From Anaerolineales bacterium (GTDB lineage Bacteria > Chloroflexota > Anaerolineae > Anaerolineales > UBA11858): a DNA stretch of 64,000 bases. The position numbers and the translations under genes were made by a program. Where the stretch lies: NCBI GenBank assembly GCA_016785015.1, contig JADHTJ010000003.1, positions 24,979-88,978 on the forward strand, read 5' to 3'. The notes beneath the pieces were generated by a model. That model saw only the letters and a program-made list of their open reading frames with translations. It did not search any database and was not told the origin of the DNA. Shown here in pieces: positions 54,569 through 64,000 of this stretch (position 1 is its first letter; every line of letters starts with the position of its first letter).

Positions 54569-55366
54569 TTACCCCATGCGGCCGGTGATATAGGCCTCGG
54601 TCAGTTCGTGTTTGGGATTGGTAAATAGCTTCTTCGTCTCGCTAAACTCGATCAATTCCCCCAACCAAAACAAGCCCGTAAAATCTGAAACCCGAGCGGC
54701 TTGCTGCATATTGTGAGTCACGATCACGATGGTGTAAAGCTCTTTGAGTTCGTGGATGAGTTCTTCGATTTTACCCGTAGCGATGGGGTCTAACGCCGAA
54801 CAAGGCTCATCCATCAAGATCACTTCTGCTTGGACGGCAAGGACGCGGGCGATACACAAGCGCTGCTGCTGACCCAGGGATAACCCCAAGGCATCATCAT
54901 GCAACTGATCTTTTACATCTTCCCAAACCGCGGCACGTTTTAAACTCTTGGTGACAATCTCTTTGAGTTCAGTCTTATCTTTGGTCATCCCTAAGACGCG
55001 CGGGCCAAAGGCCACATTATCAAAAATTGTTTGGGGAAACGGGTTTGGCTTTTGGAATACCATCCCCACCCGTTGGCGCAGACCAACAAGATCTACTTCT
55101 GGGGCGTAAATATCTTCGCCTTCTAATAGGATTTCACCTTCAACTCGCGTTCCAGAAATTGTGTCATTCATACGATTTAAACAACGTACGAAAGTCGACT
55201 TTCCACAACCGGAAGGCCCAATTAGAGCGGTTACATGCTGTGGAAGGATATCCATATTGATCTGGCTCAAGGCGATGCTTGGACCATAGTAAAAATCCAA
55301 ATTACGAATCCTGAAAGTGAGCGCATTGTCATTCATAGGCATGATTATACTCAACGGAGGGATCAT
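54569..55366 (-). CDS. pstB: Phosphate ABC transporter ATP-binding protein PstB (divergently oriented copy)
   Basis: FYYG...[32 protein letters not shown] and VTHNMQQA are canonical PstB blocks. The signature motif reads LSLGQQQ instead of LSGGQQQ. The start could be M1, M9 or M11. Confidence 0.85.
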
Positions 55367-55413
55367 TGCGTAGTATATTTCTATCGCTGAACCTAAAAAT
55401 ATTCATCATCCTC

Positions 55414-55442
55414 TTGTGTACCGACTGGTTTGAGACTATAAT
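55414..55442 (+). promoter_or_regulatory. Sigma-70-like promoter upstream of pstS
   Basis: TTGTGT (55414-55419), 17-nt spacer, TATAAT (55437-55442), 9 nt before the pstS ATG. Confidence 0.35.
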
Positions 55443-55451
55443 CCCAAACCA

Positions 55452-56336
55452 ATGAAACGGATTTTTATCTTATTAGTATTGTTGATTTTTCTACTTTCAG
55501 GATGCGGTTCTCGGACCAAAACATCCGATACCACCAACCCCCAAACTTCTTCCCAAACCATCGAAAATAAAGGCTCTGATACTATCGTCAACCTGGCATT
55601 GGCCTGGGCTGAGCGCTATCAGAAAATTCGTCCTGAGGTGCGTCTCTCGGTCACAGGGGGCGGCTCTGGTACGGGTATCGCGGCGTTGATCAACGGCACG
55701 GTCGATATCGCCAACGCCTCCAGGCGGATCAAACCTGAAGAGATCGAGTCCGCTCAAGCCAATGGGAGTGACCCGATTGAATTCGTCATCGCTCGCGATG
55801 CCATCGCTGTGATCGTCAACCTGGAAAATCCCGTTGACGAACTAACCCTACAGCAGATTTCAGATATCTACAGCGGGAAGATCAATAATTGGAGCGAAGT
55901 CGGGGGCGATGATCGCCCCATTGTGCGCCTCTCACGCGAAACAAATTCTGGAACTCATGTTTATTTTCTGGAAGAAGTTCTTCGTCTCGGAGAAAAAGAA
56001 AATAAAACACTCTTCTCCACAAATACGCTTTTGCTGCCTTCGTCTGAGGGCATCGGCGCAGAAATTCGCCTCAACCCTAATGCCATCGGGTATGACGGGC
56101 TTGGTTATGTTACTCATGAAATGAAAGTCATCGCCGTTTCTGCTGATCCTGAAATAGGTTATGTCTTGCCCTCTGCGGACAGTGTTAACAATGAGGAATA
56201 CCCCATCGCCCGAGATCTTTATATGTACTCTAATGGTCAACCGACCGGCGTGATCGAAGAGTATCTGGCTTGGATATTATCCCCCGAAGCACAGACTATT
56301 GTCACTGAACTTGGGTTTGTGCCCATAAATCCTTAA
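55452..56336 (+). CDS. pstS: Phosphate ABC transporter substrate-binding lipoprotein PstS
   Basis: Lipobox LLSGC. GSDTIVNLA...TGGGSGTGIAALINGTVDIANASR is the PBP-like phosphate-binding pattern. Confidence 0.88.
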   Translation: MKRIFILLVLLIFLLSGCGSRTKTSDTTNPQTSSQTIENKGSDTIVNLALAWAERYQKIRPEVRLSVTGGGSGTGIAALINGTVDIANASRRIKPEEIESAQANGSDPIEFVIARDAIAVIVNLENPVDELTLQQISDIYSGKINNWSEVGGDDRPIVRLSRETNSGTHVYFLEEVLRLGEKENKTLFSTNTLLLPSSEGIGAEIRLNPNAIGYDGLGYVTHEMKVIAVSADPEIGYVLPSADSVNNEEYPIARDLYMYSNGQPTGVIEEYLAWILSPEAQTIVTELGFVPINP

Positions 56337-56352
56337 GCAATACGAGGCTCTT

Positions 56353-57249
56353 ATGCAAAGTGCTCTCAACTGGCGCGAATATATCATCACCCGCCTGATC
56401 AAGATTTCAGGCTATTCAGCGATTGTATTCGTCGGACTGATCTTTTTCTTCCTGTTGCGGGAGGGCTTACCAACGCTAAGCGAAGTCGAATTCAAAAGCT
56501 TGTTTGCGACTCGCTGGTACCCGATTGAAGATTATTTTGGCATTTTGCCCCTGATTGGGGGATCGCTGATCGTCACCATCGGAGCAACAATGATCGCAGT
56601 CCCCTTTGGAGTTGGCGCGGCGGTTTATATCTCCGAGATCGCTCCCCGCTGGATGAGGGAAATCCTTAAACCCTTGGTAGAAGTTTTAGGTGGCCTTCCT
56701 TCGGTTGTCTTAGGGTTTTTGGGGATACTGGTCTTATCTCCCTATCTGCGAGTTTTCCTGGATCTACCTACCGGATTGACAGCATTGGCTGGCTCACTCC
56801 TTTTGGGTGGCATCGCTATCCCAACGGTTGTGTCTGTCTCCGAAGATGCCCTGGACGCGGTGCCGAAATCTTATCGTGACGCTTCGCTGGCGCTGGGCGC
56901 TACCGAATGGCAGACCATCTGGCGAGTGACCTTGCCCGCAGCCCGTTCGGGAGTACTTACAGCCATCATGTTGGGGGTTGGCCGCGCCATCGGCGAAACC
57001 ATGACAGTAATGATGGTCACCGGTAACGCTCCCGTGTTACCCAAGGGATTAGGCGCCCTCTTTGCCCCCGCTAGAACCATGACTGCGACAATCGCCGCCG
57101 AAATGGGTGAAGTCGCTAATGGCAGTGTGCACTACCACATTCTGTTCTTCATTGGTATCGTCCTTTTTCTCATATCACTGATAGTCAATGTGACAGCATC
57201 GGCGGTGGTATTCCGCCAGCGCAAGCGCCAGGAACGCATTCTTTCATAA
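56353..57249 (+). CDS. pstC: Phosphate ABC transporter permease PstC
   Basis: Six TM spans with the EAA-like loop SYRDASLALGATEWQTIWRVTLPAA. Confidence 0.88.
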   Translation: MQSALNWREYIITRLIKISGYSAIVFVGLIFFFLLREGLPTLSEVEFKSLFATRWYPIEDYFGILPLIGGSLIVTIGATMIAVPFGVGAAVYISEIAPRWMREILKPLVEVLGGLPSVVLGFLGILVLSPYLRVFLDLPTGLTALAGSLLLGGIAIPTVVSVSEDALDAVPKSYRDASLALGATEWQTIWRVTLPAARSGVLTAIMLGVGRAIGETMTVMMVTGNAPVLPKGLGALFAPARTMTATIAAEMGEVANGSVHYHILFFIGIVLFLISLIVNVTASAVVFRQRKRQERILS

Positions 57250-57251
57250 TC

Positions 57252-58118
57252 ATGGCTTCTTCAACTTCCTCACAATCACGCTATTTCACCCAGCGTCTGG
57301 GTTTTAGCTTCTTGACTTTGATGACTGTATTTACAGTCATTCCAATTTTGGCCGTAGTCATCTATATCGTTGTTCTCGGCTCACCGGCTATTTCTGGAGA
57401 GTTTATCGTAGGCTTCCCTCGCGAGGGAATGCGCGCCGGGGGTATCTGGCCTGCAATCGTGGGTACGTTATACCTGACACTAGGAACAGCAATTTTTGCT
57501 GTTCCCTTAGGCATCGGTGCAGCAATCTATCTCTCGGAGTATGCATCCGATAACCGCTGGACACGTTTGATTCGCATTGCCATCATTAACCTGGCAGGCA
57601 TTCCATCCGTTGTGTACGGTCTATTTGGGTTAGGATTATTCGTACTTTTCCTGAATTTTGGGACCAGTATCCTGGCTGGGTCTTTAACACTTTCGATCAT
57701 GACCCTCCCAGTGATCATCAGCACCACCGAGGAAGCGCTACGAGCTGTTCCCCAGGCTTTCCGCACAGTGAGCATTTCTGTTGGTGCTACTCAATGGCAG
57801 ACCATCCGCCGGATCGTGCTACCACAAGCGCTACCAGGTATGCTAACAGGTGTCATCTTAGGTTTGGAACGAGCCGCGGGGGAAACGGCTCCAATTCTGT
57901 TTACTGTAGCGGCTTTTTTCTTGCCCAGGTTGCCAAACACCCCCTTGGACGCCACCATGGCCTTACCGTACCATCTGTTCGTTATCTCCACGCAAGTTCC
58001 AGGGATGCCCATAAAAATTCAATATGGTACTGCGTTAGTATTGTTGGTATTCGTGCTCAGCATGAACGTCATCGCTACCATCATCCGCTCTCGGGCGCGC
58101 GCCCGTCGTCAATGGTAG
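57252..58118 (+). CDS. pstA: Phosphate ABC transporter permease PstA
   Basis: Permease with loop AFRTVSISVGATQWQTIRRIVLPQA, directly after pstC. Confidence 0.88.
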   Translation: MASSTSSQSRYFTQRLGFSFLTLMTVFTVIPILAVVIYIVVLGSPAISGEFIVGFPREGMRAGGIWPAIVGTLYLTLGTAIFAVPLGIGAAIYLSEYASDNRWTRLIRIAIINLAGIPSVVYGLFGLGLFVLFLNFGTSILAGSLTLSIMTLPVIISTTEEALRAVPQAFRTVSISVGATQWQTIRRIVLPQALPGMLTGVILGLERAAGETAPILFTVAAFFLPRLPNTPLDATMALPYHLFVISTQVPGMPIKIQYGTALVLLVFVLSMNVIATIIRSRARARRQW

Positions 58119-58125
58119 GGTCCTT

Positions 58126-58896
58126 ATGAAAAAGATAAAGACACCCAAAATCAAGATCAAGGACCTCACTTTACATTACTCCGACGGCAATGAATCTTTG
58201 CGGGGAATCAGCATGGACATTCCCAAGAACGCGATCACTGTGATGTTTGGTCCTGCGGGCGGTGGTAAATCCAGCCTGCTGAGAGTTCTCAATCGCCTAA
58301 ACGATCTCACAGATGTTGCTCAAATCGAAGGGAGTGTTCTGCTCGATGAAGAAGACATCCTAGACCCTAAAATTGATGTCATAGCATTACGGCGGCGTGT
58401 GGGTATGGTTTTCGCTCGACCGGTTGTGCTGCCGATGAGCATACGTGAGAATTTGACATATGGATTAGAAGTAGCTGGAGAAAAGGACAACACTACGCTG
58501 GATGCAGCTGTCGAACGCAGCCTGCAGCAAGCTGCCCTGTGGGATGAAGTTCAAGATCGACTGGAAGAACCGGCGGTAGTTCTCTCTGGAGGGCAGCAGC
58601 AACGCTTATGTCTGGCCCGGGTATTGGCCCTTGAACCAGAGGTCATCTTGTTGGATGAACCCACCAGTGGCCTCGATCCTATATCTACTGGGAAAGTTGA
58701 AGAATCCCTGCAAGAACTAAAAGAAGAGTACACCATCATCCTGGTACCCCACTCCGTACAACAGGCTGCTCGCACCGCAGATTACGCCGCATTTTTCCTG
58801 CAGGGAGAATTGGTAGAATACGCCCAGGGTGATAGTTTATTCATCAATCCCAAAGATGCGCGCACACAAGATTATGTGGAGGGTCGCTTTGGGTAG
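58126..58896 (+). CDS. pstB: Phosphate ABC transporter ATP-binding protein, divergent PstB paralogue
   Basis: Same overall PstB layout (LNRLNDL..., LSGGQQQRLCLARVLA), but with atypical Walker A GPAGGGKSS, Walker B region LDEPTSGLDP and H-loop VPHSVQQA. Confidence 0.8.
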   Translation: MKKIKTPKIKIKDLTLHYSDGNESLRGISMDIPKNAITVMFGPAGGGKSSLLRVLNRLNDLTDVAQIEGSVLLDEEDILDPKIDVIALRRRVGMVFARPVVLPMSIRENLTYGLEVAGEKDNTTLDAAVERSLQQAALWDEVQDRLEEPAVVLSGGQQQRLCLARVLALEPEVILLDEPTSGLDPISTGKVEESLQELKEEYTIILVPHSVQQAARTADYAAFFLQGELVEYAQGDSLFINPKDARTQDYVEGRFG

Positions 58897-59106: not shown

Positions 59107-59146
59107 GCCAATATTGGTTCGTAGTAAGGTTAGGAAGGCAAAAAAC

Positions 59147-59830
59147 ATGACTAGAGAGACATTAGATAAGAAGATACAAGGGCTGCTTGATGATGTCCTT
59201 ACTTTGGGCAGTATGGTCGAGGAAGCAATCCTCGACTCAGTTAGGGCCCTCAAAAAACGCGATCAAGAATTAGCCAAAAAGATTTATGAAGGCGATAAAA
59301 AGATCAATAAAAGACGTTATAAGATAGAGAGAAGCACCGTTACTGTTATTGCCACCCAACAACCCATGGCCAGTGATCTACGAATTTTGGCTTCGATTAT
59401 TGAAGTTGCCGGGGAAATTGAGCGCATGGGCGACTATGCCAAAGGAATCGCGCTGATAACTTCTCGGCTTGGCGATGAGCCCCCAGTCAAGCCGTTAATC
59501 GATATCCCCAAAATGGCCGACCTCACAGCTGATATGCTCCATCGTGCTTTGGGTGCCTTCGTTGAAGCAGATGTCGATACAGCCTTAGAAATCCCCAGTG
59601 AAGATGATCAAGTTGACCATCTTTATAATCAGGTGTATCGAGAACTGCTTACCTGTATGATGGCTAATCCCGAAACCATCGACGGGGCGACTTTGCTACT
59701 TTGGGTAGCCCATAATCTCGAACGCGTTGCCGACCGCGTCACCAATATTTGTGAGCGCACACGTTATGTGGCCACTGGAAAACTCAAGGATATTGATGTA
59801 TCCGACGACGAACAATTCTTAGATGACTAA
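59147..59830 (+). CDS. phoU: Phosphate signalling complex protein PhoU
   Basis: The ATG at 59147 follows AGGAAGG. Two PhoU repeats with E(x)3D-type motifs (IERMGDYAKGIA; NLERVADRVTNICE). Confidence 0.88.
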   Translation: MTRETLDKKIQGLLDDVLTLGSMVEEAILDSVRALKKRDQELAKKIYEGDKKINKRRYKIERSTVTVIATQQPMASDLRILASIIEVAGEIERMGDYAKGIALITSRLGDEPPVKPLIDIPKMADLTADMLHRALGAFVEADVDTALEIPSEDDQVDHLYNQVYRELLTCMMANPETIDGATLLLWVAHNLERVADRVTNICERTRYVATGKLKDIDVSDDEQFLDD

Positions 59831-60108: not shown

Positions 60109-60480
60109 ATGTCTGCTGGAAAAGTCATTGCCTATATCTTCGCTGCCATACTGATCTTCTTCGGTGTTCTGTTCATTTGGGCTACTTTCAGCCCTGAGGG
60201 GCAAATTGGATGGCTCCTTGTCGGAATCATTAGCGTTGTAATCGGATTTGGGGTTATTTGGTTCGCCGGTCGAAAGAAAACATCTACTGCCGGAGAGCAC
60301 GGCGAAGGCGTTACCTTGAAAATTGATCTACCCGGAGATGTCAGCCTCGATACGCTCAAATGTCAATCTTGTGGAGGCTCCCTCACGGCCGATAACATCC
60401 AAATGCTGGCAGGTGCTCCAACAGTCAGCTGCCCATTCTGTAATACAACCTATCAAATAACCGAAGAACCGAAGTGGTAA
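60109..60480 (+). CDS. Small membrane protein (2 TM) with C-terminal Cys4 zinc ribbon
   Basis: GGAGG Shine-Dalgarno sequence. Two hydrophobic spans, then CQSCGG...CPFCNTTY. Confidence 0.6.
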   Translation: MSAGKVIAYIFAAILIFFGVLFIWATFSPEGQIGWLLVGIISVVIGFGVIWFAGRKKTSTAGEHGEGVTLKIDLPGDVSLDTLKCQSCGGSLTADNIQMLAGAPTVSCPFCNTTYQITEEPKW

Positions 60481-60516: not shown

Positions 60517-62193
60517 ATGAATAAGCGATTACTCACCTCAGCATTATTGCTGATCCTGTTATTCGCCCTCCCGATTAGCGCGCTGGCGCAAACATATTAC
60601 TTCAGCCTAGATCAAGAGATTGTGAATGTCTTTTGGGAGGAAGACGGCACCCAAACTCTTGATTACGTCTTCGTCTTCAGCAACAGCCCTAGCGCTTCTC
60701 CCATTGATTTCGTCGATGTGGGATTCCCCAACGACAATTACAGCCTTTCTAATGTCAGCGCAGAGGTGGATGGCCATCCAATCCTCAATATCGAATACTC
60801 TCCCTACGTCGACAGCGGCGTGGCATTAGGATTGGGAAGTAATGCCATAAAACCAGGCCAAACCGGTCGCGTGCACGTCAAGGTTACAAGCATTCGCGGT
60901 GTACTCTTCGTCGACAGCGATGACAGCAATTACGCTAGTGCCGTTTTCAGCCCCACCTGGTTTGGCTCTGAGTATGTTTATGGATCGACAGACCTACAGG
61001 TAACTTTCCACTTACCCCCTGGCGTACAGCCAGACGAGCCCCGCTGGCATGCATCGCCTTCTGGATGGCCATCAGAACCAGCCACAGCCCTCGATCAGGA
61101 AGGTCGAGTGGCCTACACCTGGCGCAACACCAACGCCAATGCCCATACCCAATACAAGTTTGGCTCATCCTTCCCAAAAACCTATGTTCCCGCAAGCACA
61201 ATTGTCTCCCCAGGCTTATTTGAACGCTTAGGCATCGATCCAGAAGCAGTCACTGGTTTCTTGTGCTGCGGTGGTATCTTCGGTTTGATCGCATTAATCA
61301 CCTGGGCTGGAGCCACCAGCGCTCGCAAACGAAAAATGAAATACCTGCCTCCCAAGATCCGCATCGAGGGGCATGGCATCAAACGCGGTCTAACAGCTGT
61401 CGAAGCGGGGATTCTGATGGAACAACCCGCCGACAAAGTTCTGACAATGATCTTATTCGCCGTTTTGAAGAAGGATGCCGCCAGCGTCGTTTCGCGTGAT
61501 CCCCTGAAATTAGATGTTACTACGCCCTTGCCTGAAAAACTGCGCTACTATGAGCGCGATTTCCTAAACGCTTTCTCCGAAGGGAGTAAGAAACAACGCA
61601 CTCTAAACCTTCAAGATCTGATGGTCAAGTTGATCAAAAATGTTGGCAAAAAAATGAAGGGCTTCAGCCATAAAGAATCGGTCGCATACTACAAAAGCAT
61701 CATGCGCAAAGCCTGGCAGCAAGTCGAGGAGGCCGAAACTCCCGAAATCCGCAGTGAGAAATACGACGAGCATATGGGCTGGACCATGCTCGATAAAGAT
61801 TTCGACCGCCGTACCGAAGATGTATTTCGCACCGGACCCGTCTTTGTACCCATGTGGTGGCATCGCTACGATCCAGGCTGGGGTCGCTCAAGGTCAGTAA
61901 CACCGAAACCCATGGCTACTGGTGGTAGATCTGGCAGCGGCCAATCCGCGCCTTCCATGCCCAACCTGCCAGGTGGAGAGTTTGCCGCCTCAGTGGTTGG
62001 CGGCATGCAGGGCTTCGCCAGCGACGTGGTTGGCAATGTCACTAACTTCACCAACCGCATTACTAATAAAACCAACCCTGTTCCCAAGTCATCCTCCTCA
62101 GGTAGCGGCTGGAGCAGCAGCGGTGGCAGCAGTTGTGCTTGCGCCTGTGCTTGCGCTGGATGCGCCTGTGCCTGTGCAGGTGGTGGACGATAA
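60517..62193 (+). CDS. DUF2207-like exported/membrane protein with Ser/Gly-rich linker and C-terminal alternating Cys-Ala tail
   Basis: Signal peptide (LLLILLFALPISALA). N-terminal beta-rich domain starting YYFSLDQEIVNVFWEEDGTQTLDYVFVF. Single central TM (GFLCCGGIFGLIALITWAGA) followed by RKRKMK, so the C-half is cytoplasmic. The last 21 aa are SSCACACACAGCACACAGGGR. Confidence 0.7.
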   Translation: MNKRLLTSALLLILLFALPISALAQTYYFSLDQEIVNVFWEEDGTQTLDYVFVFSNSPSASPIDFVDVGFPNDNYSLSNVSAEVDGHPILNIEYSPYVDSGVALGLGSNAIKPGQTGRVHVKVTSIRGVLFVDSDDSNYASAVFSPTWFGSEYVYGSTDLQVTFHLPPGVQPDEPRWHASPSGWPSEPATALDQEGRVAYTWRNTNANAHTQYKFGSSFPKTYVPASTIVSPGLFERLGIDPEAVTGFLCCGGIFGLIALITWAGATSARKRKMKYLPPKIRIEGHGIKRGLTAVEAGILMEQPADKVLTMILFAVLKKDAASVVSRDPLKLDVTTPLPEKLRYYERDFLNAFSEGSKKQRTLNLQDLMVKLIKNVGKKMKGFSHKESVAYYKSIMRKAWQQVEEAETPEIRSEKYDEHMGWTMLDKDFDRRTEDVFRTGPVFVPMWWHRYDPGWGRSRSVTPKPMATGGRSGSGQSAPSMPNLPGGEFAASVVGGMQGFASDVVGNVTNFTNRITNKTNPVPKSSSSGSGWSSSGGSSCACACACAGCACACAGGGR

Positions 62194-62230: not shown

Positions 62231-63637
62231 ATGATTAACGGGATTCAATCTTTAATTACAAATCTCAAATCTGCGGTCAGCCGTCAGCCATCAGCCGTCA
62301 GTACAGCATTACCGCCACCTGGTTTGCATCACTTCACCCGTGAAACTCCAGAAGAGCACTCGCGCATCCATCTGCGCGTCGATCCTGATGGACACGGCAC
62401 ATTGATTGTTAACGCCAATCAGGTGGTGCATTTCAACCCAACGGCCACGCTGATGGCATACCTGACCCTCGAAGAAATTTCCAGAGAAAAGGCCATCCGC
62501 CAGATTCAGCGCACCTACAATGTACCCAAGAAGCTGGCCCAACTTGACTATACGCATTTTCTCAACGATCTTGAAGTAATCCTGCGCCCAGATGGTTGCC
62601 TAGCCTGCACCTTGGACGAATTGGAAATCGTTGCACCCTTCAGTGCCCGTCCCATGGCTCCCTATCGTATGGATCTGGCACTGACGTATCGCTGCAACGA
62701 CGATTGTGCACACTGCTACAATGCTCGCCCGCGCGATTATCCTGAATTGCCCACTCAGACTTGGAAGGAGATCATTGACCGCTGTTGGGAATTGAGCATC
62801 CCGCATATCGTTTTCACCGGAGGCGAACCAACCTTACGAGACGATCTTCCAGAGCTGATCGCCCACGCGGAATCTAATGGCCAGATCACTGGGGTCAATA
62901 CCAATGCCCGGAGGCTAAGCGATCCCCATTTCGTAGAAGCCCTCGTAAAGTCCGGCCTGGATCACATCCAAATCACGGTTGAGTCCCATGACGCACAAAT
63001 CCACGACCAGATGGTTGGAAAACACGGTGCATGGAATCAAACTATTGCGGGTCTGCGCAATGTACTCGCCAGCCCACTCTTCGTGATGACCAACACCACC
63101 ATGCTGCAAGATAATTACAGTTCTCTTAATGAAACTCTCGATTTCTTGGCGGGTTTAGGAGTCCCAACAGTGGGGTTGAACGCCCTGATCTACTCGGGGC
63201 GCGGGTTGTCGGTTGGTACGGGTCTAAGAGAAAGTGAATTGCCTGCATTACTCGATTTGGCGCGCCAGAAAACTGAAGCCCACGGACAACGCCTGATCTG
63301 GTACACGCCGACGCAATACTGTCAATTCGACCCCATGCAGTTCGACCTTGGAGTCAAAGGATGCACCGCGGCCCTCTACAATATGTGCGTGGAGCCTGAT
63401 GGGGGCGTACTGCCCTGTCAATCGTATTACCAACAATTGGGCAATATTCTGGATGATCCTTGGGACTCTATATGGAATCACACGCTTTCCACCTCGATCC
63501 GAGAAAGAGATTACATTCCCGATGCTTGTGCAGATTGTGCAGTATTAGGCGAGTGCGGCGGCGGATGTCCTCTGGCTTTAGAAGCAGACCCATCATCCAT
63601 AATCCCAATTGAAAACATTGAGTTGATCTCTATCTAA
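62231..63637 (+). CDS. Radical SAM / SPASM-domain enzyme with N-terminal PqqD-like (RRE-like) extension
   Basis: CxxxCxxC cluster motif LTYRCNDDCAHCYN. GGEPTL SAM-binding motif. C-terminal auxiliary-cluster cysteines (GCTAALYNMCVEPDGGVLPCQ...CADCAVLGECGGGCP). The ~130-aa N-terminus LIVNANQVVHFNPTATLMAYL...AIRQIQRTYNVPKKLAQLDYTHFLNDL resembles PqqD-type peptide-binding domains. Confidence 0.8.
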   Translation: MINGIQSLITNLKSAVSRQPSAVSTALPPPGLHHFTRETPEEHSRIHLRVDPDGHGTLIVNANQVVHFNPTATLMAYLTLEEISREKAIRQIQRTYNVPKKLAQLDYTHFLNDLEVILRPDGCLACTLDELEIVAPFSARPMAPYRMDLALTYRCNDDCAHCYNARPRDYPELPTQTWKEIIDRCWELSIPHIVFTGGEPTLRDDLPELIAHAESNGQITGVNTNARRLSDPHFVEALVKSGLDHIQITVESHDAQIHDQMVGKHGAWNQTIAGLRNVLASPLFVMTNTTMLQDNYSSLNETLDFLAGLGVPTVGLNALIYSGRGLSVGTGLRESELPALLDLARQKTEAHGQRLIWYTPTQYCQFDPMQFDLGVKGCTAALYNMCVEPDGGVLPCQSYYQQLGNILDDPWDSIWNHTLSTSIRERDYIPDACADCAVLGECGGGCPLALEADPSSIIPIENIELISI

Positions 63638-63642
63638 AAAAT

Positions 63643-64000
63643 ATGGCAAATTTCATTACCCTGCTTCGTTTCCCTCTGCTATTCGTTTATGTAGCATTGC
63701 TTTATACAAACAACGCCATTCTCCAATTTTGGTGTGTGCCGTTTATAGTTTTCATCATTCTGATGGATATGTTTGACGGCTTGATCGCCCGGGCACGCGG
63801 CGAGGTGAGCTTATTGGGCAGCGTGCTGGATATCGCCACAGATCGCACATTCGAGATCATTCTGTGGGTGGTCTTTGCCCATCTTGGATTGATCCCAATT
63901 GTCATCCCCCTCATTGTGATCACCCGAGGCACCACCGTTGATGCTGTGAGGGCCGTTGGCATGAAAGATGGTCTTGCAGCCTTCGAACAAGTCAGACATC
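63643..64000 (+). CDS. CDP-alcohol phosphatidyltransferase family protein (3' end cut by window edge)
   Basis: My own translation from the ATG at 63643: MANFITLLRF...DMFDGLIARARGEVSLLGSVLDIATDR matches D(x)2DG(x)2AR...G(x)3D(x)3D. The frame stays open to nt 64000, and this ORF is not in the supplied track. Confidence 0.75.
   Translation, partial: MANFITLLRFPLLFVYVALLYTNNAILQFWCVPFIVFIILMDMFDGLIARARGEVSLLGSVLDIATDRTFEIILWVVFAHLGLIPIVIPLIVITRGTTVDAVRAVGMKDGLAAFEQVRH

Follow-up and report, generated by a model that had tools for sequence, protein, structure and literature searches.

A bacterial membrane protein of 558 aa ends in a tail of alternating Cys and Ala residues, and its gene is followed by one for a radical SAM enzyme, here termed rSAM1. 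We favour, with somewhat better than even confidence, that this cytoplasmic tail, carried by the full-length protein, is the putative substrate of rSAM1, the cysteines most likely being linked by thioether crosslinks. The linkage between tail and radical SAM gene is strict across phyla, domains and gene orders.

The Cys-Ala tail and its conservation

Within the window, i.e. the whole stretch of 64,000 nucleotides that was analysed, the Cys-Ala tract noticed in a preliminary description was confirmed in its letters and coordinates: positions 62134-62178 read tgt gct tgc gcc tgt gct tgc gct gga tgc gcc tgt gcc tgt gca and form the 3' end of the ORF 60517-62193 on the forward strand (Table 1). 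The next codons are ggt ggt gga cga taa, i.e. GGGR and the stop codon at 62191-62193. The protein end reads SS-CACACACAGCACACA-GGGR-stop, and the translated end of the ORF is ...SSCACACACAGCACACAGGGR. Three matches of the pattern TGYGCNTGYGCNTGYGC were found in the window, every one within the tail tract, compared to a mean of 0.01 in 100 dinucleotide-preserving shuffles of the window. Across the 4.9-Mb genome the full tail pattern has a single match. In a sample of 401 genomes of the phylum it occurs in 28, once in each, and the reversed control pattern gave 0 matches among the same 401 genomes.

The tract is an imperfect DNA repeat, and the initial proposal that selection acts on the peptide rather than on a slippage-prone microsatellite is borne out by 46 DNA versions, all distinct, that come from other genomes. 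Without exception they encode (CA)3-5-G-(CA)3-GGGR, while the synonymous sites vary freely: Cys is written as TGT and TGC at 164 : 155, all four Ala codons are used, and Arg is encoded by both CGN and AGR. No non-synonymous change was observed in the last (CA)3-GGGR block of the 46 versions, and variation between species is limited to the first block, which comprises three to five CA units. An alignment of the C-termini, suggested at the outset as a check for absent or frameshifted tails, revealed that all orthologues in 31 related genomes keep the tail. P0002 (540 aa, 100% identical over 95%) is the sole close copy without it and was discarded as a tail-less orthologue: its contig stops 9 bases past the stop codon and its sequence turns unrelated at the linker, a contig-end artefact.

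In more distant homologues the tail is kept down to ∼27% identity, Bathyarchaeia included. Clustering at 50% identity gave 150 representatives, 106 of which have a recognisable tail; the remaining ones are mostly fragments, together with a few Cys-rich variant tails. Of 531 single-residue gaps between tail cysteines, 528 contain Ala, and no replacement of a tail Cys was seen among the homologues compared, so that the spacer itself is under constraint. Metallothionein CxC sites have variable spacers, unlike the Ala of the tail. Furthermore, the G/S break and the GGGR end are fixed, and conservation of the 19-residue tail motif exceeds that of the proteins that carry it. Judged from these alignments, the tail is under strong selection at the peptide level.

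Architecture of the tail protein

That the tail belongs to a membrane protein, as first described, agrees with a single hydrophobic span and with signal-peptide-like residues 2-25. The domain order is signal peptide, extracytoplasmic beta-sandwich, one transmembrane (TM) helix, cytoplasmic helical domain, Ser/Gly linker and tail. The TM span has acidic residues on its N side and ARKRKMKY...K..R on its C side, and these flank charges predict a cytoplasmic location of the C-terminal half and tail. The same compartment is predicted for the zinc ribbon of a neighbouring protein (zn123, see below) and for the enzymes.

More than 4000 homologues of the tail protein exist, and no Pfam or NCBIfam family was found for it. 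Its beta-sandwich domain contains zero Cys. In Foldseek it retrieved generic beta-sandwich matches at low global TM-scores, i.e. ribophorin I and the M1 aminopeptidase N-domain (0.12-0.27 for the latter), and this fold search gave no lead on function. The protein presumably resembles the DUF2207-type plan, with an extracytoplasmic beta-sandwich, a TM helix, a cytoplasmic part and a Gly/Ser-rich low-complexity end. Membership in DUF2207 found no support, as the window protein has no Pfam match at E <= 0.01, and of 36 members tested against DUF2207_C only three gave a match, the best at E 0.065.

The segment of residues 482-524, located upstream of the tail, has the invariant columns P482, P485, G486, F489, A490, V504, G506, F511, T516, T519, N520, P521 and P523. 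Bathyarchaeia have a related segment, PGQDFANN...FANKL, upstream of the tail; the segment is not conserved in the Bacillota form or in a divergent Chloroflexota clade, where the sequence differs. It may be a recognition ('leader-like') element or an amphipathic helix. The tail itself is left disordered, without a fold, in the AF2 model.

Table 1 Features of the tail protein locus (positions in the window)
Feature	Position	Strand	Basis
zn123, 123-aa membrane protein; N-terminus with two TM helices, cytoplasmic end zinc-ribbon-like (CxxC...CxxC)	60109..60480	+	Hydropathy
Cys-Ala-tailed type-I membrane protein, 558 aa, single-pass	60517..62193	+	
Extracytoplasmic beta-sandwich domain (residues about 26-225)	60592..61191	+	AF2 pLDDT about 90, residues 29-220
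Single TM helix (residues 243-267); RKRKMKY on its C side (positive inside)	61243..61317	+	Kyte-Doolittle scan, flank charges
Conserved segment PxLPGxxFAxxVVxGxQxFxxxVVGNxxxFTxxITxKTNPxP (residues 482-524), 5' of the tail	61960..62088	+	
Ser/Gly-rich variable linker (residues 525-539)	62089..62133	+	Free length and sequence variation among homologues
Tail, (Cys-Ala)4-Gly-(Cys-Ala)3-Gly-Gly-Gly-Arg and stop codon	62134..62193	+	
rSAM1, RRE + radical SAM + SPASM enzyme (RRE predicted), 468 aa	62231..63637	+	Pfam
rSAM1, predicted RRE-like domain	~62318-62581		
rSAM1, CX3CX2C (C155, C159, C162)	62693-62716		
rSAM1, SPASM cysteines	~63320-63568		
CDP-alcohol phosphatidyltransferase gene start, runs past the window end; outside the core cassette	63643..64000	+	Pfam PF01066

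The radical SAM enzyme rSAM1

The adjacent ORF had been described as a radical SAM enzyme, and it matches Pfam Radical_SAM (3e-24) and SPASM (1.8e-8, above its cut-off). The CX3CX2C motif (CNDDCAHC, residues 155-162) is invariant in 25 orthologues. The SPASM motif CX9C...CX2CX5CX3C is complete (CVEPDGGVLPC + CADCAVLGECGGGC) and agrees with the seven-Cys consensus CX9-15GX4C ... CX2CX5CX3C, and its cysteines C364, C378, C396, C433, C436, C442 and C446 are invariant in orthologues as well; the motifs of rSAM1 imply three [4Fe-4S] clusters. Against Pfam PqqD the N-terminus scores 18.8 bits, under the gathering score of 23.4. The AF2 model (pTM 0.82) shows four strands (31-68) and then three helices (70-117) at a pLDDT of about 90, and the alignments to SkfB, SuiB and CteB take in this domain; a PqqD-like RRE consists of three strands and three helices. 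We read it as a predicted RRE-like domain, mainly from the AF2 topology and the full-length alignment to SkfB.

Among the solved relatives of rSAM1, SkfB and PqqE are the best by sequence and SkfB, SuiB, PqqE and CteB rank top in Foldseek; all four of these peptide maturases align with rSAM1 over the full length. EpeE and anSME are among its fold neighbours, and GDGT-MAS is among the distant fold matches. All 25 listed NCBIfam matches lie far under their cut-offs, including SkfB TIGR04403 (71, cut-off 300) and StsB NF045574; the latter gave 80 bits at a cut-off of 625, and rSAM1 is therefore not a StsB member. From the six-residue catalytic-site-proximity profile (Precord et al. 2023) position 1 alone was read. 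This residue, Y163 right after the CX3CX2C motif, is invariant and the same as StsB Y113, unlike CteB F112. As a pointer to the chemistry the agreement with StsB is a weak hint.

Linkage of tail and enzyme across genomes

The tail protein and rSAM1 occur together in 32 of 41 related genomes (the same 32 for both), and the other nine match neither. At 65 of 70 judgeable Anaerolineae-type loci rSAM1 lies at most 2.5 kb downstream of the tail gene; at the other five a cluster-less paralogue, pseudo-rSAM, directly follows the tail gene. In the phylum sample the enzyme is adjacent in 27 of the 28 matches of the tail pattern. Two gene orders occur, zn-tail-rSAM1-rSAM2-MTase in most Anaerolineae and zn-rSAM1-rSAM2-tail-MTase in the divergent Chloroflexota clade; the rSAM1-rSAM2-tail-MTase part of the latter recurs in Planctomycetota, Armatimonadota, Hydrogenedentota and others, with a zn gene detected in only 2 of 80 loci. 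The zn, tail and rSAM genes abut in Bathyarchaeia. In Bacillota the same motif is found beside an rSAM on a different, smaller carrier protein, which is unrelated to the 558-aa tail protein. Three loci (L220, L223 and L157) have several kb of upstream sequence, yet no adjacent enzyme. The carriers are hundreds of uncultured anaerobes and at least two cultured ones, Leptolinea sp. HRD-7 and Hungatella hathewayi WAL-18680. Neither the Pfam and NCBIfam models nor the literature that we found describe this tail-rSAM system.

The cassette comprises a zinc-ribbon protein with two TM helices, the tail protein, rSAM1, its cluster-less paralogue and a SAM methyltransferase, the last at 38 of 52 loci. 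Intergenic gaps at the locus are 36, 37 and 5 nt. The first cassette gene is zn123, with a weak match to the zinc-finger model TIGR04104. A zn gene lies immediately 5' of the tail gene at 77 of 77 judgeable Anaerolineae-type loci, and both Bathyarchaeia and the divergent Chloroflexota clade have the zn protein, too, with four to five Cys every time. Pseudo-rSAM keeps an N-terminal segment aligning with the RRE of rSAM1 and has lost all Fe–S ligands; since Bathyarchaeia lack it, it is not essential. A separate small precursor peptide was not found, the conserved small ORFs all being shadow frames inside large genes.

Genes for a CDP-alcohol phosphatidyltransferase, an acyltransferase and PAP2 lie between rSAM1 and pseudo-rSAM at 11 of 52 loci, in this lineage only, and are absent at loci L050-L054. 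A core function of rSAM1 in lipid chemistry, considered in view of the phosphatidyltransferase 5 nt downstream, was dismissed, the lipid genes being a lineage-only insertion. Because of the same lineage restriction, lipidation of the tail, one of the roles offered in the preliminary description, finds no support. Its suggestion of a substrate of the adjacent enzyme is the best supported of these roles, given a linkage that holds across phyla, domains and orders. In many Anaerolineales the cassette adjoins pst/phoU; with phoU linked at just 20 of 70 loci, we take this as local synteny. In the window, arsC is also near the cassette.

Discussion

We propose that the Cys-Ala tail acts as a 'core peptide' carried by a protein. 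The 558-aa protein would first insert in the membrane with its N-domain outside and its C-half inside, and the flexible cytoplasmic end would then be captured by rSAM1, whereupon the tail cysteines would be covalently modified. Probably, rSAM1 teams up with the cluster-less paralogue, which may be a non-catalytic partner or a substrate holder. The most likely reaction would be formation of a thioether from a Cys sulfur to a carbon of a neighbouring Ala or Gly. One fitting geometry would be a hairpin that has its turn at the central Gly or Ser, in a register that would place each Cys opposite an Ala of the other arm, comparable to the sactionine ladder of StsA (CxCxC...GxGxG). A later step would fall to the methyltransferase, the zinc-ribbon protein may have a role as well, and the product would be a rigid appendage at the inner face of the membrane, thiol-free or newly metal-binding. 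Gene linkage indicates that the tail protein and rSAM1 work together; a modification of one by the other is not implied by it. The chances appear evenly balanced that the genes represent an unnamed maturation system of at least nine bacterial phyla and Bathyarchaeia, in which enzyme, dead paralogue and methyltransferase turn the tail into a ladder of several thioethers or into a protein-derived cofactor of a new kind.

The main alternative, which is less probable but a serious competitor, is that the seven thiolates stay unmodified and bind Zn, Cu(I), Fe or an Fe–S cluster at the inner membrane face, the rSAM pair being linked otherwise, e.g. by receiving clusters or electrons from the tail or by sensing it. 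CxCxC is a known metal-binding arrangement and Cys-x-Cys strings are classic ligands of metals and Fe–S clusters, a spacing that the tail has. In addition, the partner zn123 bears a four-Cys ribbon, rSAM1 needs three [4Fe-4S] clusters by motif, and pst/phoU in many Anaerolineales and arsC in the window are close to the cassette. However, Ala in 528 of 531 gaps together with the fixed G/S break and GGGR is more constraint than ligand spacing requires, and the combination of an RRE-type enzyme and a dead paralogue in which the RRE is kept speaks for binding of a peptide. Moreover, phoU is linked at 20 of 70 loci only, and AF2 gives the tail no fold.

Appreciably less probable is a role of the tail and its upstream segment as a docking site that tethers rSAM and pseudo-rSAM to the membrane through their RREs, while the real substrate is the zinc-ribbon protein, a lipid or a small molecule. 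Seven invariant Cys would be superfluous for a mere docking peptide, and those characterised RRE-rSAM-SPASM enzymes beside Cys-rich partners that were examined all modify the partner. Binding without chemistry does exist in the system, since pseudo-rSAM has an RRE-aligned segment but no catalytic clusters. The GDGT-MAS match and the lipid genes between the paralogues of this lineage are consistent with docking as well, although these genes are present at 11 of 52 loci only and absent from other lineages.

We are slightly more doubtful still about the tail being a substrate for a chemistry other than thioether formation, such as epimerisation of the alternating Ala/Cys to a D,L strand, conversion of Cys to formylglycine as by anSME, or C-C or C-methyl chemistry with a subsequent methyl transfer. 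A D,L pattern would be compatible with the strict two-residue alternation, the fold neighbours of rSAM1 include the epimerase EpeE as well as anSME, and 38 of 52 cassettes have the SAM methyltransferase. The type of chemistry is not readable from the sequence, as SuiB and PqqE are equally close in fold and make C-C bonds. Radical SAM chemistry is not fixed by sequence alone (PMC10288494). Still, the closest full-length matches in structure and sequence are SkfB, SuiB and CteB, not EpeE or anSME, consecutive formylglycines would be highly reactive, and no precedent was found in the literature searched. Finally, a low-complexity accident or slippage-driven phase variation with no function of its own, for which only the three to five CA units of the first block in different species speak, is effectively refuted by an identical peptide despite saturated synonymous change in an imperfect DNA repeat, by retention of the tail from Chloroflexota to Bathyarchaeia and on the unrelated Bacillota carrier, and by the sole tail-less close copy, P0002, being a contig-end artefact.

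To our knowledge, radical SAM thioether chemistry acts almost solely on small secreted peptides, with protein substrates limited to QhpC and CrpA (2026). A dedicated enzyme set is tied to the Cys-Ala tail, and the conserved pairing points to an undescribed modification that is made on a whole protein, at its tail. Should rSAM1 indeed modify it, this would be a new post-translational modification of membrane proteins, the first of RiPP type on an integral membrane protein. RRE-type enzymes would then gain a new class of substrate, and the catalytically dead radical SAM paralogue would have a role.

SkfB, CteB (SCIFF), AlbA and the C-C crosslinking SuiB have the three-domain architecture that is predicted for rSAM1 and are its best matches in sequence and fold, but the aligned structures share no more than 16-19% identity with it, and they act on short leader-core peptides instead of protein tails. 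The nearest precedents are QhpC/QhpD, CrpA/CrpC and StsA/StsB. QhpD crosslinks QhpC, the gamma subunit of quinohemoprotein amine dehydrogenase, by several intra-chain Cys thioethers in a protein substrate before the maturation steps of other enzymes (PMC7876137). In contrast to the tail protein, QhpC is small and soluble, its links run from Cys to Asp/Glu, and it contains a tryptophylquinone cofactor; the sequence context and the partners are others, too. CrpC of Methanococcus voltae forms thioethers in a whole Cys-rich protein, the full-length CrpA (PMC13692751, 2026). The tail system is comparable in that an rSAM-SPASM enzyme with a predicted RRE is encoded beside a full-size Cys-rich protein, to which RiPP-like logic would be applied. 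CrpA differs in being soluble, with ten 17-residue repeats whose CxxQ/D-type motifs yield ranthionines, and the pair has no membrane anchor, Cys-Ala repeat or pseudo-rSAM. CrpC belongs to TIGR04463, which is absent from the 25 best NCBIfam matches of rSAM1. In StsA/StsB/StsC of Streptomyces sparsogenes (related to BlaA/BlaB), StsB forms three Cys-Gly sactionines on CxCxC...GxGxG (PMC10288494). Shared features are the i, i+2 Cys spacing, an rSAM/SPASM enzyme working with an RRE (predicted in rSAM1), the Tyr after CX3CX2C, and a thioether hairpin ladder onto small residues, which is only proposed for the Cys-Ala tail. The Sts precursor is, however, a small free peptide that has a leader and three Cys, with Gly as the acceptors, and the Sts RRE is a separate protein. 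In the system described here, seven Cys in alternation with Ala terminate a membrane protein of 558 aa, the predicted RRE is fused to the enzyme, and a dead paralogue is added.

Conservation of the Cys-Ala tail

On re-reading, the sequence agreed exactly with the codon tract given in the preliminary description. The tract is followed immediately 3' by GGT GGT GGA CGA TAA, and the 558-aa product of ORF 60517..62193 (+) has the C-terminus SSCACACACAGCACACAGGGR. All three window matches to the degenerate codon pattern fall inside the tract (shuffle mean 0.01), and the full pattern has a single occurrence in the 4.9-Mb assembly.

The tail protein has more than 4000 homologues, and alignment of C-termini revealed an essentially invariant tail in the best 120 of them, down to 44% identity. 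A recognisable tail is present in 106 of 150 representatives of 50%-identity clusters, the rest being chiefly fragments and a few Cys-rich variant tails. The sequence of the final (CA)3 block is invariant in all 106 tailed representatives and is followed by GGGR in 101, while Ala is the single-residue Cys-Cys spacer in 528 of 531 cases. Some tails have Ser for Gly at the break or Val for Ala, some have the mirror form (CA)3-G-(CA)4, and some consist of three blocks with a total of 10 Cys; between species, length changes slowly and only in the first CA block. Related genomes supplied 46 distinct DNA versions of the tail, every one encoding (CA)3-5-G-(CA)3-GGGR-stop, whereas codons vary freely for Cys (TGT 164, TGC 155), Ala (GCC 197, GCT 62, GCG 40, GCA 20) and Arg (CGN or AGR). 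As already argued in the preliminary description, the tail is therefore, to judge from its sequences, under selection at the peptide level and not a mutable microsatellite.

A single near-identical protein lacks the tail, but true loss was rejected, since this is a contig-end artefact. A public assembly of a near-identical strain (L135:4590-4632) is broken precisely at the Ser/Gly linker that precedes the tract and continues with unrelated sequence, resulting in a false 540-aa tail-less protein. This suggests that assemblers have difficulty with the tract or the sequence around it.

The tailed protein and its gene neighbourhood

Besides the seven Cys of the tail, the protein contains two Cys within the membrane span and none elsewhere. 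The acidic N-side and RKRKMKY C-side flanks of this span predict an N-out, C-in orientation. In the AlphaFold2 model, built on an alignment of 36 sequences, the tail is disordered (mean pLDDT 72). Foldseek returned just ribophorin I and the N-domain of M1 aminopeptidases, with low global TM-scores; no Pfam or NCBIfam model matches, apart from a faint DUF2207_C match in 3 of 36 family members. A second tailed paralogue of ~770 aa, in which the extracytoplasmic domain is duplicated, is found in some relatives (L002, L008, L015, L076, L089, L097). Where two tailed paralogues stand in tandem ahead of one gene for rSAM1, the adjoining radical SAM enzyme, a single enzyme may serve two tails.

Features of the locus and their linkage to the tail gene, counted over the judgeable loci among 80 Anaerolineae-type loci from different species (L049, the window's own contig, reaching past the window end)
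Feature	Position	Strand	Description or basis	Linkage
Cys-Ala tract, (TGY GCN)4 GGA (TGY GCN)3	62134-62178	+	sequence read	
Signal peptide	residues 2-25		predicted, hydropathy	
One TM helix	residues 243-267		predicted, hydropathy	
Beta-sandwich	residues 29-220		confident in AlphaFold2 model	
Helical cytoplasmic domain	residues 290-445		AlphaFold2 model	
Zinc-ribbon gene	60109-60480	+	123 aa, two TM helices, predicted cytoplasmic CxxC...CxxC ribbon	directly upstream, 77/77
rSAM1	62231-63637	+	468 aa	<=2.5 kb downstream, 65/70
Three lipid-metabolism genes	63643-64000 and L049:4622-6762 (same contig, past window end)		CDP-alcohol phosphatidyltransferase, PIM/lipid-A-type acyltransferase, PAP2 phosphatase	within 6 kb, 11/52
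Pseudo-rSAM	L049:6812-7957 (~window position 65833-66978, past window end)		381 aa	within 6 kb, 51/52
Methyltransferase	past pseudo-rSAM, one minus-strand gene between		class-I SAM	within 6 kb, 38/52
phoU				upstream, 20/70
Motif carrier in Bacillota (other genomes, not this locus)	L184:3840-4838; also L186, L221			

The radical SAM enzyme that had been noticed beside the tail gene starts 37 nt downstream of it, and this proximity recurs in Anaerolineae-type loci (see table). rSAM1 possesses a CX3CX2C motif (C155, C159, C162), a complete SPASM Cys set and a weak N-terminal PqqD match, while its NCBIfam matches (NirJ2, PqqE, AhbD, StsB, SkfB and others) all lie far under cut-off. Sequence comparison places it closest, among solved structures, to SkfB (alignment starting at residue 48) and to PqqE; by full-length fold, the best matches are SkfB, SuiB, PqqE and CteB. 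The AlphaFold2 model (pTM 0.82) starts with a four-strand sheet followed by three helices, which we read as RRE-like.

Pseudo-rSAM, a paralogue with 37% identity to rSAM1, lacks CX3CX2C and the SPASM Cys and has one Cys in total, but retains the GGEPTL motif and an N-terminal segment aligning with the RRE-like region of rSAM1. In the five loci without a nearby rSAM1, it lies directly 3' of the tail gene. Among 41 related genomes, tail protein and rSAM1 occur together in 32, whilst the remaining 9 show neither. The operon contains no separate, conserved small ORF that could serve as a classical precursor. Only in the window's lineage are the three lipid genes inserted between rSAM1 and its dead paralogue, and they resemble a module for phosphatidylinositol-type lipids that hitch-hiked into the operon. 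In the window the cassette comes after pstSCAB-phoU (59114-59830 and upstream 54569-58896), with arsC lying within a few kb on the upstream side. The arrangement may reflect no more than synteny, or may point to phosphate/oxyanion handling.

Distribution in other lineages

In a divergent Chloroflexota clade (28% identity) the genes run zinc ribbon-rSAM1-pseudo-rSAM-tail-methyltransferase. Scanning for the mirror-tail pattern recovered rSAM1-pseudo-rSAM-tail-methyltransferase in Planctomycetota, Armatimonadota, Hydrogenedentota, Myxococcota, Elusimicrobiota, Nitrospirota and Sumerlaeota, the zinc-ribbon gene being detected in just 2 of 80 such loci. In Bathyarchaeia contigs, recognised by Alba and TBP genes, zinc-ribbon, tail and rSAM genes abut, the tail has 10 Cys, rSAM1 identity is 41-45% and pseudo-rSAM is absent. 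These archaeal loci (L136, L137) have a UbiE-like methyltransferase and a sugar-nucleotidyltransferase before the cassette and a GT4 glycosyltransferase after it.

The motif CACACAGCACACACAGGGR also occurs in Bacillota, among them the isolate Hungatella hathewayi WAL-18680, on an unrelated ~330-aa membrane protein. In this protein the motif has an internal position, just beyond a TM helix and its Gly-rich linker, and precedes a conserved AGCS-(K/Q)KDF segment. An rSAM gene lies directly upstream in two uncultured Bacillota loci (L184, L221), in L184 overlapping the start of the carrier's open frame; none was detected at the Hungatella locus. Among the loci of these other lineages, a few are without an adjacent enzyme (L157, L220, L223).

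A proposed substrate role for the tail

These data show a functional unit in which the membrane protein with its tail is paired with a radical SAM enzyme of the peptide-maturase type. Since both are in addition predicted to share a compartment, and the Cys-Ala motif behaves like a portable core peptide, we lean towards the tail being the substrate of rSAM1. A tail that binds a metal or an Fe–S cluster, as also considered in the preliminary description, appears unlikely by comparison, and a docking role is less probable still. If the tail is modified by rSAM1, thioether crosslinking of its Cys is the most likely chemistry, because the characterised enzymes of this architecture considered here that are encoded beside a Cys-rich partner, StsB, CrpC and QhpD, all make such links (PMC10288494; PMC13692751; PMC7876137) and because Ala of the tail is itself under constraint; any other chemistry on the tail is the most doubtful of these readings. 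From its sequence, the tail could fold back on itself at the central Gly or Ser, in a hairpin that would place each Cys opposite an Ala, a register that would fit the 4+3 form, the 3+4 form and the archaeal V-S variant. The dead paralogue is probably a non-catalytic binding partner, and the methyltransferase probably acts in a later step.

Neither family models (Pfam, NCBIfam) nor the literature searched describe this system, which falls below the membership threshold of every curated family tested. The proposed Cys-Ala hairpin would follow the same logic as the CxCxC...GxGxG ladder of StsA, and the system as a whole resembles RiPP-type sacti-/ranthipeptide maturation and the recent cases with protein substrates.
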